Positions 17,279 through 51,941 are shown, counted from the stretch's first letter. The stretch is 64,000 nucleotides of DNA from Kofleriaceae bacterium (GCA_964203225.1 CAXNMK010000002.1:737664-801663), one strand, 5' to 3'. Made by a program: numbers and translations. Notes: generated by a model from the sequence alone, not told the origin.

Positions 17279-17959
17279 ATGACGCCGCAGCATCACATCA
17301 TCAAGGAGACGAGCGAGTCGCTCTCCCGGCTGCTGCAGGACGAGTTCAAGCGCAACGGCTACAAGCGCGTCCACATCGTCGAGCAGGCTCCGAAGCCCGA
17401 TGCGATCGAGGGCAAGCTTCCCGCTGTCTCCGCGTACCTCTATCAGATCTCGATCGACCCCGAGGGCTACGATTCCACGCCGCACTCCGAGCTCGTCGAG
17501 GTCCCGCAAGAGGACGGCTCGATCAAGGAGTACTTCCGGCGCCGGCGCCTGTGGGTCCGCCTCGACTACCTGCTGTCCGCGTGGGCCCAGACCCCCGAGG
17601 ACGAGCAACTCCTCCTCGGCCTGATCATCAGGACCGTGATGGAGAACGCCGAGATCCCGCGCGACAAGCTCAAGGGGCAGTCGTTCGAGGACGACTTCAA
17701 GCTCAACTGGCTGATGTCGGCGCGCCTCGACGAGGGCACGCTCGCCCGGTTCTGGGGCAGCCTCAACCAGCCCGTGCGCCCCGCGATCCAGGCGTGGACC
17801 GCGATCCCGATCCTGCCGGAGAAGCTCGAGGAGTTCAAGCGCGTCCAGACGCGCCAACTCGAGTACAAGTCCATCACCGATCCCGCCGTGTCCGAGATCG
17901 GTCCGAGCGGCAACCCGTTCGGCAAGCGCCTCGACCTCGGAGGAGGCGCGAAGAAATAG
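17279..17959 (+). CDS. eCIS tail terminator/cap protein (DUF4255, Afp16/Pvc16 N-domain-like)
   Basis: ~226-aa protein directly preceding the sheath gene. Sequence features (LLQDEF.., LYQIS..) recalled as DUF4255-like. First gene of a phage-tail-like operon. Confidence 0.5.
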   Translation: MTPQHHIIKETSESLSRLLQDEFKRNGYKRVHIVEQAPKPDAIEGKLPAVSAYLYQISIDPEGYDSTPHSELVEVPQEDGSIKEYFRRRRLWVRLDYLLSAWAQTPEDEQLLLGLIIRTVMENAEIPRDKLKGQSFEDDFKLNWLMSARLDEGTLARFWGSLNQPVRPAIQAWTAIPILPEKLEEFKRVQTRQLEYKSITDPAVSEIGPSGNPFGKRLDLGGGAKK

Positions 17960-18054
17960 GTTTCGTGCCGGGGTTCGCGATCATGCGTGCCTCGGCCCAC
18001 CGGTAGACGGGCGAAGACCACCGTCACGGGCAATCGTTGAAGGAGAACAAGCGA

Positions 18055-19263
18055 ATGGCTACCAGCTACCTGTCCCCTGGCGTCTACGTCGAAGAAGTCG
18101 ATCGCGGTTCCAAGCCCATCGAGTCTGTTGGCACCAACACCGTTGGGTTCCTCGGCGAGTCGGCCAAGGGCCCGCTCAACGAGTCCGTCCTGATCACGAA
18201 CTGGTCGCAGTTCGTCAAGACGTTCGGTGACTTCAAGGACTGCAGCGAGCACCTCGCTCACGGCGTCTATGGCTTCTTCAACAACGGCGGCTCGCGCTGC
18301 TTCGTCGTCAACGTTGGCGCTCCCGAGCAGGCCAAGGTCGAGACGAAGGCGCCGGCTGGCGACAAGAAGGACGAGAAGGCGCCGGTTCAGGCCGCTGGTG
18401 GTGGCCGTGACGGCCTCTACATCGGCCGCGACGGTGGCCCCGGTGCCCGCACCGGCCTCAAGTGCTTCGAGGAGATCGACGAGATCGCGATCGTCGCGGC
18501 CCCGGGCCAGACCTCGCCCGCCGTCCAGGACGCGCTGCTCTCGCACTGCGAGACCCGCAAGGACCGGTTCGCCGTCCTCGACTCGCCCGAGACCATCACG
18601 GGTGGCGTCGACAAGCTCCCCAAGCCGCGCGACTCGAAGTACGGCGCGTACTACTTCCCGTGGATCCAGGTCTATGACCCGGACAAGGGCAACATCTTCG
18701 TCCCGCCCTCGGGCCACATCGCCGGCGTGTACTCGCGCACCGACAGCGAGCGCGGCGTCCACAAGGCGCCCGCCAACGAGGTCATCCGCGGCGCGCTCGG
18801 CATGAAGTACAACGTCTCGAAGGGCGAGCAGGACCTGCTCAACCCGAAGGGCATCAACGCGATCCGCTTCATGACCGGCGCGATCCGCATCTGGGGCGCT
18901 CGCACGCTCTCGAGCGATCCGTCGTGGCGCTACATCAACGTGCGCCGCCTGTTCATCATGGTCGAGTCGTCCATCGAGCGCGCCACCCAGTGGGTGGTGT
19001 TCGAGCCCAACGACCATCGCCTGTGGAAGCGCGTGCAGCGGACGATCGCCTCGTTCCTCACGCTCCTGTGGCGCAACGGCGCCCTGATGGGCACCTCGCC
19101 GGAGCAGGCCTTCTACGTCAAGTGTGACGAGGAGACCAACCCGCCCGAGGTGATCGACGCCGGCCAGCTGGTCGTCGAGATCGGCCTCGCCCCGGTGAAG
19201 CCCGCGGAATTCGTCATCTTCCGCATCGGCCAGATGGCCAGCGGCGGCGGCGTCGAGGAGTAA
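18055..19263 (+). CDS. Contractile tail sheath protein (Afp2/gp18-like), paralog 1
   Basis: RBS aaggag, then ATG. N-terminal YLSPGVYVEEVD sheath signature. Conserved C-terminal RIWGARTLSSDPSWRYINVRRLFIM...AFYVKCDEETN block, shared with the 21208 gene. Confidence 0.85.
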   Translation: MATSYLSPGVYVEEVDRGSKPIESVGTNTVGFLGESAKGPLNESVLITNWSQFVKTFGDFKDCSEHLAHGVYGFFNNGGSRCFVVNVGAPEQAKVETKAPAGDKKDEKAPVQAAGGGRDGLYIGRDGGPGARTGLKCFEEIDEIAIVAAPGQTSPAVQDALLSHCETRKDRFAVLDSPETITGGVDKLPKPRDSKYGAYYFPWIQVYDPDKGNIFVPPSGHIAGVYSRTDSERGVHKAPANEVIRGALGMKYNVSKGEQDLLNPKGINAIRFMTGAIRIWGARTLSSDPSWRYINVRRLFIMVESSIERATQWVVFEPNDHRLWKRVQRTIASFLTLLWRNGALMGTSPEQAFYVKCDEETNPPEVIDAGQLVVEIGLAPVKPAEFVIFRIGQMASGGGVEE

Positions 19264-19527
19264 CCTCCCCGATGGTCCCAGGACCCGCGGGGTCCTGGCG
19301 CCCATTATGGTCTCGTGCGGGGAAGAAACGCCGTCACGAGGTCGTAAGAGGCGGAGTTACCAAGTGGGCGCCCACCGGCAATGACGCCACGGGCGGACCC
19401 GACGGCTCAGAGGAGCACTCGAAAACGGCAGGGGGATCTTCGGTGACCACAAGGAGCACGCTCGTTGTGGCCGCCGACGCTCTCCGTGACGGGCCGGCTC
19501 GCAGCATCCGACAGGGAGATACATTCA

Positions 19528-50176: not shown

Positions 50177-50857
50177 ATGAGTTCTCCTGAGGCCGACGCT
50201 GGTGTCGTCCAGTCCCGCGTTCAGCTCGAGAGGCTGGTCGCCGATGACGAACTGGCCGGTCGCACGATCGCCGGGTTCGCGGCGCCCTCGGTGCTGCTCC
50301 GGGGGCTCGACCTCGACGGGGTGACGCTGGATCGCCTCGACCTGCGCGGCGCCGACGGCGACGAGACCCGCCTCGAGCGCGCGGAGCTCAAGCTGAGCGA
50401 TCTCCGCACCTCGCAGTGGAAGGGCGCGCTGTGGAACCGCGTCAAGGCCAAGGACTGCGACATGACCGAGCTCGACTTCAGCGGCGCGCAGCTGCTCCGG
50501 TGCGAGTTCGGGCCGGTGCGGATGGCGCGCGTGCGCTTCCACCGCGCGCGGATCCAGGGCACGACGTTCAAGGAGTCGGAGCTGTACTCGGCCGACTTCG
50601 CCGGCGCCGTGCTGCTCAAGGTCGTGTTCGAGGGCTACGAGCACGCCACCGTGTCGCTGTCGCGCACGGACTGGACGGGTGCATCGCTGTTCGACGTCGA
50701 CTTCAAGCGCGCGAACATGTACGGCGCGAACCTGCGCGGTGCGGTGTTCGTCCGCTGCGACCTGCGCGGGGTCAGCCTGTGCAGTGCTGATCTCACCGGC
50801 GCGCGCCTCGTCGGCTGCGACACCACCGGCGCCGACCTCGACGGAGCCACGTTCTAG
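50177..50857 (+). CDS. Pentapeptide-repeat protein (candidate eCIS payload/accessory)
   Basis: Tandem A(D/N)LxG-type pentapeptide repeats throughout (ANLRGAVFVRCDLRGVSLCSADLTGARLVGCDTTGADLDGATF). Confidence 0.7.
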   Translation: MSSPEADAGVVQSRVQLERLVADDELAGRTIAGFAAPSVLLRGLDLDGVTLDRLDLRGADGDETRLERAELKLSDLRTSQWKGALWNRVKAKDCDMTELDFSGAQLLRCEFGPVRMARVRFHRARIQGTTFKESELYSADFAGAVLLKVVFEGYEHATVSLSRTDWTGASLFDVDFKRANMYGANLRGAVFVRCDLRGVSLCSADLTGARLVGCDTTGADLDGATF

Positions 50858-50877
50858 GACCTCGTAGGAGCCCGCCC

Positions 50878-51498
50878 ATGCCGCCCCGCCCCGATCTCCG
50901 TGACATCGCTTCGAACGTCCGCGAGGCGTTCGCCGATGCTGACCGCGACACCCTGCTCGACGTCCTGACCTTCGTGGTCAAGGAGTATGTCGTCGAGGGG
51001 CCGCCGCCGATGATGATCCACCAGGCCGAGACGCTCTCGGACCTCAAGGGCATGTCGTTCGCCCAGCTGATCGCCGCGATGCAGACGCGCTTCGATCACG
51101 CCGAGCTGGCGATGTTTGTCGTCGATGGCGAGCAGGTCAGCGTGCGCGTCGGCGGTGTCGTCCAGCCGCTGCTGCCCAGCCGGCAGCCGATCGCCGAGCC
51201 CCCGCGGCAGGCGCCAGGGGTCCGCGTTGTCGAGACCACGCTGGCCCAGCAGCGCCCCGCTGCGCCCGCGCCGGTCGCCGCCGTCCCCGCGCCGCGGCCC
51301 GCTGCCCCGGCGTCGGCGCCGTCGGCACAGCCGCCCACGCGGGGCCTGTCCCTGCGCGGGCGGCCCACGGGGGAGGGTGGGGATGCACCGCCGCTTGCCG
51401 CGCCGCCGCCCGCGGCCGCCGCGCCGCCGCCGCCGGACCGCCCCGAGGGTGGGGGCGACGATGCCTCCGCGCGGTTCAGCCTGCTGGAGCTCGACTGA
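50878..51498 (+). CDS. Hypothetical protein with a Pro/Ala-rich C-terminal half
   Basis: ORF with a protein-like N-terminus. No domain recognised. Confidence 0.3.
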   Translation: MPPRPDLRDIASNVREAFADADRDTLLDVLTFVVKEYVVEGPPPMMIHQAETLSDLKGMSFAQLIAAMQTRFDHAELAMFVVDGEQVSVRVGGVVQPLLPSRQPIAEPPRQAPGVRVVETTLAQQRPAAPAPVAAVPAPRPAAPASAPSAQPPTRGLSLRGRPTGEGGDAPPLAAPPPAAAAPPPPDRPEGGGDDASARFSLLELD

Positions 51499-51941
51499 TG
51501 AGCTCTGTCGCACGGCGCTACTACGAGCGCGGCCGGCAATCGCTCGACACCGGCGATGTGGAGTCGGCGCAAGAGGCCCTGCGCGCCGCGCTCGACCTCG
51601 CGCCGCAGTTCGGCAACGCCCGGGTGGCGTACGCCGTGGCGCTCGCGCGCGCCGGGGACTGTCCACGCGCGGCCGCCGTCCTGCGTGCGGGCCTCGGGCG
51701 CGCGTCGTCGCCGATCTCCGCCGCCGCGATGTACGCCACGCTCGGCGACGTCCTCACCCTTGGCGGTGACTTTTTCGGGGCCGAGGATGCGTTCATGCAG
51801 GCGGCCGCCACGCCCGGCTTCGAGGTGCGAGCCGCCGCGGGCCTCGCGCGCACGTACGCCAAGCTCGGGCGCCACGCGGACATGGCCAGGCAGCTCAAGC
51901 TCGCCGCGGCCGCGTCGTTGCGAGGCCCCACGACGCCCTAG
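51498..51941 (+). CDS. TPR-repeat protein
   Basis: ARRYYERGRQSLDTGDVESAQEALRAALDLAPQFGNARVAYAVALARAGDCPRAAAVL shows tetratricopeptide-like repeats. ATGA coupled to the upstream ORF. Confidence 0.5.
   Translation: MSSVARRYYERGRQSLDTGDVESAQEALRAALDLAPQFGNARVAYAVALARAGDCPRAAAVLRAGLGRASSPISAAAMYATLGDVLTLGGDFFGAEDAFMQAAATPGFEVRAAAGLARTYAKLGRHADMARQLKLAAAASLRGPTTP

Follow-up and report, generated by a model that had tools for sequence, protein, structure and literature searches.

A 64,000-nt stretch of the genome of Kofleriaceae bacterium (GCA_964203225.1, CAXNMK010000002.1:737664-801663; the window hereafter) carries a complete phage-tail-like contractile injection system (CIS) locus, positions 17279-51941, whose structural operon includes a block of four FHA genes and is followed by genes for a PP2C phosphatase and a Hanks Ser/Thr kinase. 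We interpret this as a lineage II CIS that is integrated with an FHA/kinase module, leaning towards a machine docked on the membrane like a type VI secretion system (T6SS) or like the Streptomyces system CIS-Sc, and give this interpretation somewhat better than even chances. The four FHA genes are a real distinguishing feature of the clade to which the locus belongs, and the functional unit probably extends past the CIS genes to 55283, taking in the phosphatase, a gene without assignment and the kinase on the minus strand.

G+C ranges from 64 to 79% across the window, so raw lists of open reading frames (ORFs) are swamped by spurious frames; genes were called from third-position G+C (GC3) and frame plots. 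Between 17279 and 51941 this gives about 30 genes, all on the plus strand and most of them overlapping or a few bases apart (Table 1). Family calls are Pfam matches above the gathering score unless marked as weak, and PHROGs and NCBIfam were searched as well. In this one locus, matches above that score cover the families for the sheath, the inner tube, gp25, the J-type wedge and the VgrG/gpV spike, together with the CIS markers Pvc16_N (DUF4255), CIS_tube and eCIS_core (DUF4157 renamed). An earlier note on this stretch, made from the sequence alone, had proposed a complete locus for an extracellular CIS (eCIS) of the Afp/PVC type in a myxobacterium-like genome. Its gene set is real and nearly every gene call was right: profile searches of the ORFs recover the cap, two sheaths, tubes, gpD, two gpV, gp25, J, P2_I, FHA, AAA, DUF1257, DUF2997, DUF4157 and pentapeptide genes, and the homologues, which come from metagenome-assembled genomes (MAGs), are named Kofleriaceae, Haliangiales or Myxococcota. 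The assignment to Afp/PVC does not hold, as set out below.

The FHA block occupies the place that the earlier note had given it, between the gene at the fibre position and the ATPase gene. FHA protein 1, predicted to be soluble, has a conserved N-terminus, a linker rich in Pro, Gln, Gly and Met, a zinc ribbon and the FHA domain. For FHA protein 2 a signal peptide, a periplasmic vWA-like domain of about 300 residues, a transmembrane helix and a cytoplasmic FHA domain are predicted; the outer domain of its homologues matches PF00092 (VWA) or is named YegL (JGI). This vWA-bearing protein is the most variable of the four (53% median identity), which would fit a periplasm-exposed sensor or contact surface. 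FHA protein 3 has a zinc ribbon and an FHA domain behind a predicted N-terminal transmembrane helix, so that two of the four proteins would be anchored in the membrane. In FHA protein 4 the FHA domain is followed by a linker rich in Pro, Gly and Met and by a coiled coil some 500 residues long; its homologues in relatives are 812-866 aa long. A start at M94 (44393) would leave a gap of up to 590 nt after 43802; the reading frame is open from 43946, and GTG/TTG starts at 44114 and 44117 would add an Ala/Pro/Arg-rich N-terminus that is absent in relatives. FHA proteins 1 and 4 and the kinase contain similar low-complexity linkers of Pro/Gly/Met or Pro/Gln/Gly ('PGMPGMP', six copies of 'GPPGMG' and five of 'GGMPPQGGFQPP'; 41225-41266, 44837-44974, 45356-45423 and, on the minus strand, the kinase C-terminal region at about 53750-54300), a likeness that may reflect shared linker chemistry or simple compositional bias.

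Relatives that cover the region number about 17 loci from a genome scan and contig look-ups, every genome locus found being in a MAG, and about 34 metagenome loci of at least 9 kb, with ATPase identities of 68-92%. These soil myxobacteria abound in metagenomes, where hundreds of contigs were found and the scan, made with an eight-sequence alignment, returned only relatives of at least 63% identity. All loci covering the region have the order J, P2_I, TssK-like, FHA1-4, AAA, DUF1257, DUF2997, eCIS_core, pentapeptide, unknown, TPR, the last four being accessory genes, with occasional insertions of a few kilobases in this otherwise fixed arrangement. The four FHA genes are present in every one of these loci (about 50, all Haliangiales), and none is annotated in the loci of lineage II that were inspected in Streptomyces, Nostoc, Paracoccus and Rhodococcus.

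The arrangement recurs outside the myxobacteria. Plasmid pTRESU01 of Treponema succinifaciens (NC_015386.1) encodes a full-length homologue of the protein at the fibre position, referred to here as TssK-like (E 5e-51), followed immediately by a gene for a 122-aa zinc-ribbon-FHA protein and then by one for a protein with a signal peptide, a vWA domain, a transmembrane helix and a zinc ribbon. The same plasmid holds an ATPase of the same family (55% identity), DUF1257, DUF2997 and a pentapeptide protein, as well as a J (572 bits across its whole length) and a sheath (58% identity to sheath A) that are the closest annotated ones. This triad of TssK-like, FHA and vWA genes is an independent recurrence in another phylum and the strongest independent evidence of linkage. 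Unlike the Kofleriaceae locus, the plasmid spreads its genes over about 88 kb with many VgrG/gpV-toxin cassettes, has one FHA gene and not four, and its vWA protein ends in a zinc ribbon rather than an FHA domain. Almost all of this array lies on one strand, with two sheath/tube sets, at least five VgrG-family genes and six gpV genes; PAAR, M23, SH3 and polymorphic toxin 44 domains occur in the toxin cassettes.

Downstream of the CIS genes the three minus-strand genes for the phosphatase, an acidic protein and the kinase complete a threonine-phosphorylation gene set (Hanks kinase, PP2C, FHA) that is present and conserved next to the locus. The kinase has a Pro/Gln/Gly-rich linker and a C-terminal transmembrane helix, i.e. 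it is tail-anchored, and the phosphatase is among the best conserved genes (83% median identity). In 13 of the 17 genome loci that span this part the trio adjoins the CIS genes, at distances between 0 and about 5 kb; in one relative (L004) a kinase follows on the same strand. An 808-aa kinase ORF (53658-56084, minus strand) was discarded as an artefact of an open upstream frame, its first 267 residues being Arg-rich and out of frame. It overlaps a separate gene at 55277-56338 (minus strand; 353 aa, no family match) that is conserved after the kinase in L001 and L002.

The likeness to T6SS goes beyond the kinase, phosphatase and FHA genes adjoining a contractile machine. A TssK-like gene stands directly next to genes for membrane proteins, a vWA domain is periplasmic, as in PpkA, and an FHA domain followed by a Pro/Gly-rich linker is the layout of Fha1. 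The differences are that the vWA domain is here carried by an FHA protein and not by the kinase, that there are four FHA proteins versus one, and that the cap, chaperone and tape-measure-position genes are of the phage or eCIS type. T6SS-specific families are missing: no locus protein has a Pfam match to TssB/C, ClpV, TssA, TssJLM or Hcp, and only the phage-like modules shared with T6SS (gp25, gpV-OB and GPD) are matched. In T6SSs, assembly is under the control of PpkA, PppA and Fha1, and TssK, whose gene is genetically linked to tssL, connects the baseplate with the membrane protein TssL (PMC10433429).

The TssK-like assignment comes from structure prediction. A fibre-position gene had been called by the earlier note, and residues 9-152 of its product indeed match NCBIfam CIS13_fam (E 2e-14), below the equivalog cut-off, while a PDB sequence search returns no match for the protein. 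Its sequence search yields distant relatives at 27-47% identity, and an AlphaFold (AF2) model reaches a pLDDT of 86.7 with distant representatives from an exhaustive HMMER search, compared with 52.6 with 40 close homologues. The predicted fold has three domains, a beta 'shoulder' at the N-terminus, a neck of helices and a jelly-roll at the C-terminus; the best Foldseek matches of the model in the PDB are TssK structures (5y0e, 6n38 and 5mwn; E 5e-8 to 1e-5), and the C-terminal head matches carbohydrate-binding modules CBM6 and CBM35. Such a fold is not new, because a 2026 catalogue already describes the eBAP3 class, in which, in Tail_P2_I loci, the eBAP3 fibres resemble TssK and Tail_P2_I resembles TssG (PMC12923769). 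The features of that class are present here, namely a PF09684 wedge gene followed by a CIS13_fam/TssK-like N-terminal anchor. Across about 100 related loci the median identity of the fibre-position protein is 79%, the same as that of J (79%) and close to that of P2_I (80.5%). Receptor-binding fibres are normally the fastest to diversify, and the slow change of this one, as judged from these identities, appears unusual.

Placement among known CISs rests on E-values and bit scores against solved chains. Sheaths A and B match the CIS-Sc sheath (8bky/9gtp, 8bl4/9gts) with E-values of 8e-132 and 4e-88, versus 7e-59 and 1e-43 for Pvc2 (443 bits for the CIS-Sc sheath, 203 for Pvc2), matches to Afp2-4 being no better than those to Pvc2, and 8bky/9gtp is the best PDB match of sheath A. 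Baseplate_J gives 2e-79 (271 bits) with CIS-Sc Cis11 and 7e-5 (24 bits) with Afp11. The gene order, which the earlier note took to depart from the canonical one, is normal for annotated lineage II loci in Nostoc, Rhodococcus and Streptomyces: cap, sheath, tube, chaperone, tape-measure position, LysM/Cis7, hub/spike, gp25, J, P2_I, fibre. What the locus has in common with the Afp/PVC systems of lineage Ia is a cap, sheath, tube, spike, gp25, J-type wedge, AAA+ ATPase and downstream cargo. Those systems differ in having Afp12, adenovirus-type fibres (eBAP1), a tape measure after the fibre and a two-domain Afp15 (PMC11495950, PMC12923769), and in having no FHA genes; here, by score, the sheaths and J match theirs much more weakly, and Tail_P2_I and a CIS13/eBAP3-type protein stand instead of Afp12 and the eBAP1 fibre.

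CIS-Sc is the system on which class IId was founded; it is located in the cytoplasm, has neither a fibre nor a tape-measure gene and requires the membrane protein CisA (PMC12237407); a related lineage in Chloroflexota and Deinococcota is also intracellular (PMC12998442). Besides the closest solved sheath and J, our locus shares with CIS-Sc the lineage II order, the pairing of a J-type with a P2_I-type wedge and the presence, downstream of the wedge, of genes for membrane proteins with Cys-rich zinc-ribbon-like segments. In Streptomyces the corresponding protein is CisA, and cisA lies just after the P2_I-type wedge gene (PMC12237407, PMC10020575). CIS-Sc differs in having a single sheath and a fused VgrG; it lacks eBAP3 and any other fibre gene, encodes a canonical 700-aa Cis15 next to the cap gene and a J of 652 aa versus 1012 aa here, and is without FHA, vWA, kinase and PP2C genes. 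In the window no canonical Cis15 adjoins the cap, an eBAP3-type gene is present, and the membrane proteins are of the FHA/vWA kind. On these sequence comparisons we would place the locus in lineage II, near class IId and not inside it, because spike, tube and gp25 do not discriminate among CIS-Sc, AlgoCIS and the thylakoid-anchored CIS (tCIS) in the PDB sequence search.

The ATPase also sets the locus apart. The earlier note had called it an Afp15-like AAA+ ATPase, of which the AAA+ part stands: Walker A, Walker B and arginine-finger motifs are intact. Against Cis15 of S. clavuligerus and of Rhodococcus pWB1 the identity is 23-26% over about 200 residues, confined to the AAA core, whereas these two canonical lineage II Cis15 proteins share 38% over 619 residues. 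Pvc15, with its Walker B residue at E555 (PMC11495950), is also longer than this protein of 537 aa. To judge from this comparison with lineage II Cis15, the ATPase is not an Afp15/Cis15 orthologue. Its best 120 protein matches are 84-91% identical and come, where the source is named, from Kofleriaceae, Myxococcota or Deltaproteobacteria MAGs. Scanning one genome per species gave 80 ATPase loci. The ones with 68-92% identity belong to Haliangiales CIS loci, and about 60 further ones, at 43-54% full-length identity, are spread over many bacterial phyla and archaea. Many of these stand-alone loci have DUF1257 and DUF2997, often together with a radical-SAM-like 4Fe-4S protein. Within 10 kb of any of the approximately 60 there is no gene for a sheath, tube, gp25, J, cap or spike, iterated profile searches included, and the FHA block is absent from them. 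Examples of the stand-alone AAA-DUF2997-DUF1257 module, again with no tail genes nearby, occur in Hodarchaeota, Methanococcoides and a B. cereus plasmid.

In this respect the window resembles the stand-alone modules (Ycf46/Ycf35-type), with an ATPase at 43-55% full-length identity that DUF1257 and DUF2997 follow likewise; it differs in that here and in Treponema the module lies within a CIS locus and the stand-alone modules come with the radical-SAM-like protein and no tail genes. Since the locus has no Cis15-like gene and no other AAA gene, a recruited AAA-DUF1257-DUF2997 module appears to be used in place of Cis15. Of the accessory genes that follow it, those for eCIS_core and for the protein at 50878-51498 are among the faster-evolving ones (56% and 59% median identity); the eCIS_core, pentapeptide, 50878-51498 and TPR proteins are candidates for accessory or cargo functions.

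The remaining structural genes form an ordinary set with some peculiarities. The cap protein matches 9gts_0A, a Pvc16 N-terminal domain protein, and the inner tube protein matches the tube proteins of AlgoCIS, tCIS, PVC and CIS-Sc in the PDB. The tube-like gene at 19465 and the chaperone gene at 20499 probably start at 19528 and 20583, respectively. In the CIS loci of Nostoc and Rhodococcus the counterpart of the chaperone is annotated as a 'phage tail assembly protein', in the Streptomyces locus it is a hypothetical protein in the equivalent position, and identity to these is 48-55%. The CIS_tube protein has a weak PDB match (9rce_H) and stands where the Streptomyces and Rhodococcus loci have a LysM protein. 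The hub and spike reported by the earlier note as one gpD and two gpV proteins are confirmed by family matches, with a change in how they are counted: gpD and the first gpV jointly align along the single VgrG-like chains 7aef_q, 7b5h_AJ and 9gtr_q and therefore represent one split VgrG, and they are split likewise in Rhodococcus pWB1. A four-Cys protein of 60 aa occupies the slot held by PAAR in other loci and may play its part; it has weak zinc-ribbon Pfam matches below threshold, and a 59-60-aa gene is kept at this position in L004 and L005. PASTA is fused to Tail_P2_I in all relatives, and in a Paracoccus plasmid CIS locus (L172, 28680-29843) a PASTA-domain protein follows the wedge genes.

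Two of the structural genes cannot be read in a single frame in this assembly. The Ala-rich tape measure of the earlier note is Ala-rich (21-24%) and lies in the tape-measure slot of lineage II loci, but it consists of two ORFs with no family match, and tape-measure function is suggested by position. Some 150 nt ahead of the first ATG of the second ORF, the GC3 signal already passes from the frame of the first ORF into that of the second; the two probably represent a single protein of about 1600 aa that is interrupted by a frame change near 25150-25200. The last approximately 60 residues of the first ORF are Arg-rich junk. The second gpV-type spike is extended by some 900 aa of Gly-rich repeat and has an acidic, Ser/Thr-rich C-terminus. 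Its gene contains a 33-bp tandem repeat in 33.5 copies plus 84-bp and 168-bp Gly-codon repeats (31390-33135), and between 31590 and 33330 the Gly-rich frame runs A, C, B, A, B with four to six hops. No single frame reads the whole protein in the window, whereas the relatives L004 and L005 encode it in a single ORF (1200-1254 aa). The frame shifts in both genes look like indel errors in G+C-rich repeats or real decay; for the spike gene, indel errors in a repeat of 79% G+C are likely, or else gene decay or phase variation. Between the spike and zinc-ribbon genes there is a gap of 418 nt (34246-34665), versus about 100 nt in L004 and L005, and a 132-aa ORF at 34200-34598 has an ambiguous coding signal. 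Pfam, PHROGs and NCBIfam return nothing for the two Ala-rich proteins, the spike C-terminus, a 206-aa protein and a 231-aa protein.

Table 1 Features called in and around the CIS locus (window coordinates; Pfam matches above the gathering score unless marked weak).
Feature	Position	Strand	Match or property
T2SS-like operon	36-9006		E, F, G, three pseudopilins, 731-aa K-like protein, PilM/FtsA-like protein, M
Cap/tail terminator (Cis16-like)	17279-17959	+	Pvc16_N (PF14065) 67.8 bits
Sheath A, 408 aa	18037-19263	+	Phage_sheath_1 + 1C
Tube-like protein, 324 aa, C-terminal extension	19465-20439	+	Phage_T4_gp19 42.6 bits, weak CIS5_fam
Tail assembly chaperone, 163 aa	20499-20990	+	PHROG 508, E 1e-6
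Sheath B, 587 aa, N-terminal extension	21208-22971	+	Phage_sheath_1 + 1C; best PDB match 8bky
Inner tube protein, 150 aa	22981-23433	+	Phage_T4_gp19 118 bits
Ala-rich ORFs, tape-measure position	23449-25362 and 25331-28264	+	no family match
Tube initiator/Cis7-like, no LysM	28261-28788	+	CIS_tube (PF19266) 78.6 bits
Split VgrG-like hub and spike	28737-30583	+	Phage_GPD half 28737/28797-29855, Phage_base_V half 29861-30583
Second gpV-type spike	30588-34246	+	Phage_base_V 84 bits on N-terminus
Zinc-ribbon protein, 60 aa, four Cys	34665-34847	+	weak zinc-ribbon matches
gp25/TssE-like sheath initiator	34852-35283	+	GPW_gp25 84.7 bits; PDB 2ia7, 9gtp_V
Baseplate wedge J/Cis11-like, 1012 aa	35348-38386	+	Baseplate_J; PDB 9gtp_1K
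PASTA + Tail_P2_I wedge (Cis12/TssG-like)	38389-39294	+	PF03793, PF09684; PDB 9gtp_E
Fibre-position (TssK-like) protein	39291-40826	+	eBAP3/CIS13-type shoulder, helical neck, CBM6/35-like head
FHA protein 1	40953-41801	+	FHA 65 bits, weak DZR
FHA protein 2	41798-43330	+	FHA 59.8 bits; hydrophobic segments 11-29, 342-360
FHA protein 3	43341-43802	+	FHA 63 bits; TM-like (transmembrane-like) segment 1-19, zinc ribbon
FHA protein 4	44393-47080 (ORF open from 44114; start uncertain)	+	FHA 55.9 bits
AAA+ ATPase, 537 aa	47102-48715	+	Pfam AAA
DUF1257 protein	48736-49143	+	Pfam
DUF2997 protein	49128-49358	+	Pfam
eCIS_core/DUF4157 HExxH protein	49368-50027	+	PF13699 70.7 bits
Pentapeptide-repeat protein	50177-50857	+	Pfam
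Unknown protein	50878-51498	+	
TPR protein	51498-51941	+	Pfam
PP2C phosphatase	52042-52854	-	PP2C; metal-binding motifs intact
Acidic protein of no known function	52943-53638	-	
Hanks Ser/Thr kinase, 541 aa	53658-55283	-	Pkinase; HRD, DFx intact

If the CIS and the FHA/kinase module do form one unit, the gpD/gpV hub would be the base on which the particle is built in the cytoplasm, gp25, J, P2_I and the TssK-like protein would make up the wedge, and the FHA/vWA proteins would form an inner-membrane platform that recruits or licenses the baseplate. The tail-anchored kinase would write phosphothreonine marks and the PP2C phosphatase erase them, and at least the canonical FHA domain of the coiled-coil protein (FHA protein 4) could read them. 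The phosphothreonine state would then gate assembly, docking or firing, as PpkA, PppA and Fha1 do in some T6SSs. The AAA-DUF1257-DUF2997 module could act as chaperone, loader or remodeller in place of the usual Cis15, and the DUF4157 HExxH protein, like the pentapeptide protein and the extension of the spike, is likely to be cargo or an adaptor for it. A more far-reaching version, which we consider only tentatively, is that the clade of Haliangiales and Treponema loci represents a separate and so far undescribed mode of contractile injection, an eCIS-derived machine that has independently become T6SS-like. Its baseplate would dock via the TssK-like protein onto a complex of FHA, zinc-ribbon and vWA proteins replacing TssJLM or CisA, with kinase and phosphatase licensing firing, the AAA module replacing Cis15 or ClpV, and the Gly-rich spike and DUF4157 protein as cargo or carriers.

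Several observations weigh against an integrated, membrane-docked machine. The membrane topology of the FHA proteins follows from hydropathy and the positive-inside rule only. The full GR..SRxH..NG set of phosphothreonine-binding motifs is found in only one of the four, FHA protein 4, although S-x-x-H and (S/T)NG are retained in all. All four also match a YscD-type family, inner-membrane components of type III secretion systems, and YscD-type FHA domains need not bind phosphothreonine. No kinase or PP2C gene is annotated at 1-90 kb of pTRESU01, and two of the relatives (L016 and L019) are without the trio within about 6.5 kb. Synteny with close relatives continues past the kinase (cytochrome c), and because L002 shares genes beyond it, part of the kinase linkage could be inherited gene order. 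The PASTA domain on P2_I and the CBM6/35-like head are glycan- or peptidoglycan-binding folds, better suited to a place outside the cytoplasm, and eBAP3 proteins have been read as extracellular tail fibres (PMC12923769).

The last two points lead to an alternative that we regard as possible, with a chance well short of even: a classical released eCIS, bound to its target via the eBAP3 head and PASTA, in which FHA, kinase and phosphatase only regulate production or release. Particles assembled in the cytoplasm would be freed, for example by lysis of a subpopulation, and inject their cargo into prey or host. Pvc16_N, CIS_tube and eCIS_core/DUF4157, markers of extracellular systems, are all present, as is a CIS13/eBAP3 N-terminus with a CBM-like head on the fibre-position protein, and loci with Tail_P2_I and eBAP3 are classed as fibre-bearing eCISs (PMC12923769). 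The recurrence of PASTA in the Paracoccus locus points the same way. PASTA domains are normally extracytoplasmic and bind peptidoglycan or beta-lactam; binding to the surface of target cells would suit the Haliangiales, predatory soil myxobacteria. However, Pfam reveals no holin, endolysin or other release function among the locus proteins, the conservation of the putative fibre equals that of the core baseplate, unlike that of fast-diversifying receptor binders, and the closest solved relatives act in the cytoplasm. Four FHA genes inside a structural operon, directly following a TssK-like gene, with a counterpart in a second phylum, resemble parts or partners of the machine more than distant regulators.

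That same position speaks to a further alternative, namely that FHA, kinase and phosphatase belong to an unrelated module for envelope or cell-cycle signalling, comparable to actinobacterial FhaA/FhaB-PstP-PknB. FHA, PP2C and Hanks kinase proteins are very abundant in myxobacteria, and besides the continuing synteny and the two loci that lack it, the trio is on the opposite strand and up to 5 kb away in some relatives. The FHA genes, in contrast, lie on the same strand as the CIS genes with short gaps (the fourth start being uncertain), fixed in about 50 loci; a zinc-ribbon-FHA and vWA membrane pair follows a TssK-like gene on the spirochaete plasmid, and the other lineage II loci inspected have no annotated FHA gene. 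We therefore consider an unrelated module improbable. We reject a defective prophage tail or an R-pyocin-like tailocin, to which we assign a very small chance: sheath, tube, gpD, gpV, gp25, J and P2_I do occur in P2-like tails and R-type pyocins, and there are weak PDB matches to the pyocin sheath, but Pvc16_N, CIS_tube and eCIS_core are CIS markers and the locus is vertically conserved across Haliangiales. As the earlier note had argued, it is not a prophage: none of the ORFs scanned in the window matches a capsid, terminase, portal or integrase family, the scans found no lysis genes and no tRNA, and 2.9 million viral contigs contain no relative of sheath B.

The flanks add little to this picture. 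The nearby T2SS operon mentioned by the earlier note exists (a type II secretion system-like operon, T2SS-like in Table 1) and is followed, up to 11471, by a gene for an 820-aa protein that matches nothing but an MGMT DNA-binding domain at its C-terminus. A functional link to the CIS was dropped because about 8 kb separate the two, and in this interval, beside the MGMT-domain protein and a LuxR-type regulator, an aspartyl-tRNA synthetase is encoded on the opposite strand. Just upstream of the cap gene are two genes without assignment, 15875-16735 (plus strand), whose product has an HExxH motif ('FHEMLHQVH') and no family match, and 16729-17235 (minus strand). Rfam has no match in the window. 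PADLOC gave only generic AAA (IetA) and coiled-coil (LmuB/JetC) matches, which were taken as non-specific and hence as no evidence for a defence system.

CIS loci have been catalogued by the thousands and another one is routine; Tail_P2_I/eBAP3 baseplates, split VgrGs and DUF4157 cargo markers are likewise known already. In the full-text literature searched, we found no description of this arrangement for the Treponema plasmid, for a myxobacterial CIS or for FHA/kinase genes with an eCIS, nor of the Treponema plasmid array itself, of a linked kinase/PP2C pair outside T6SS or a replacement of Cis15 by AAA-DUF1257-DUF2997; DUF1257 and DUF2997 appear there only in cyanobacterial and plastid contexts, and an FHA/vWA membrane block within a CIS operon, as predicted here, seems undescribed. 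When and where contractile machines fire is much less clear outside T6SS, and the CisA adaptor of the cytoplasmic Streptomyces system was found only recently. The clade offers a natural test case, with an eCIS-type core and a T6SS-style set of kinase, phosphatase and FHA genes plus a vWA transmembrane protein wired into the operon, in an arrangement conserved across a whole order of soil myxobacteria, with an echo on the plasmid of a spirochaete. Should the link be functional, phospho-switching of contractile machines would have arisen more than once, a new kind of membrane docking complex would be identified, and the widespread AAA-DUF1257-DUF2997 module would gain its first cellular role.

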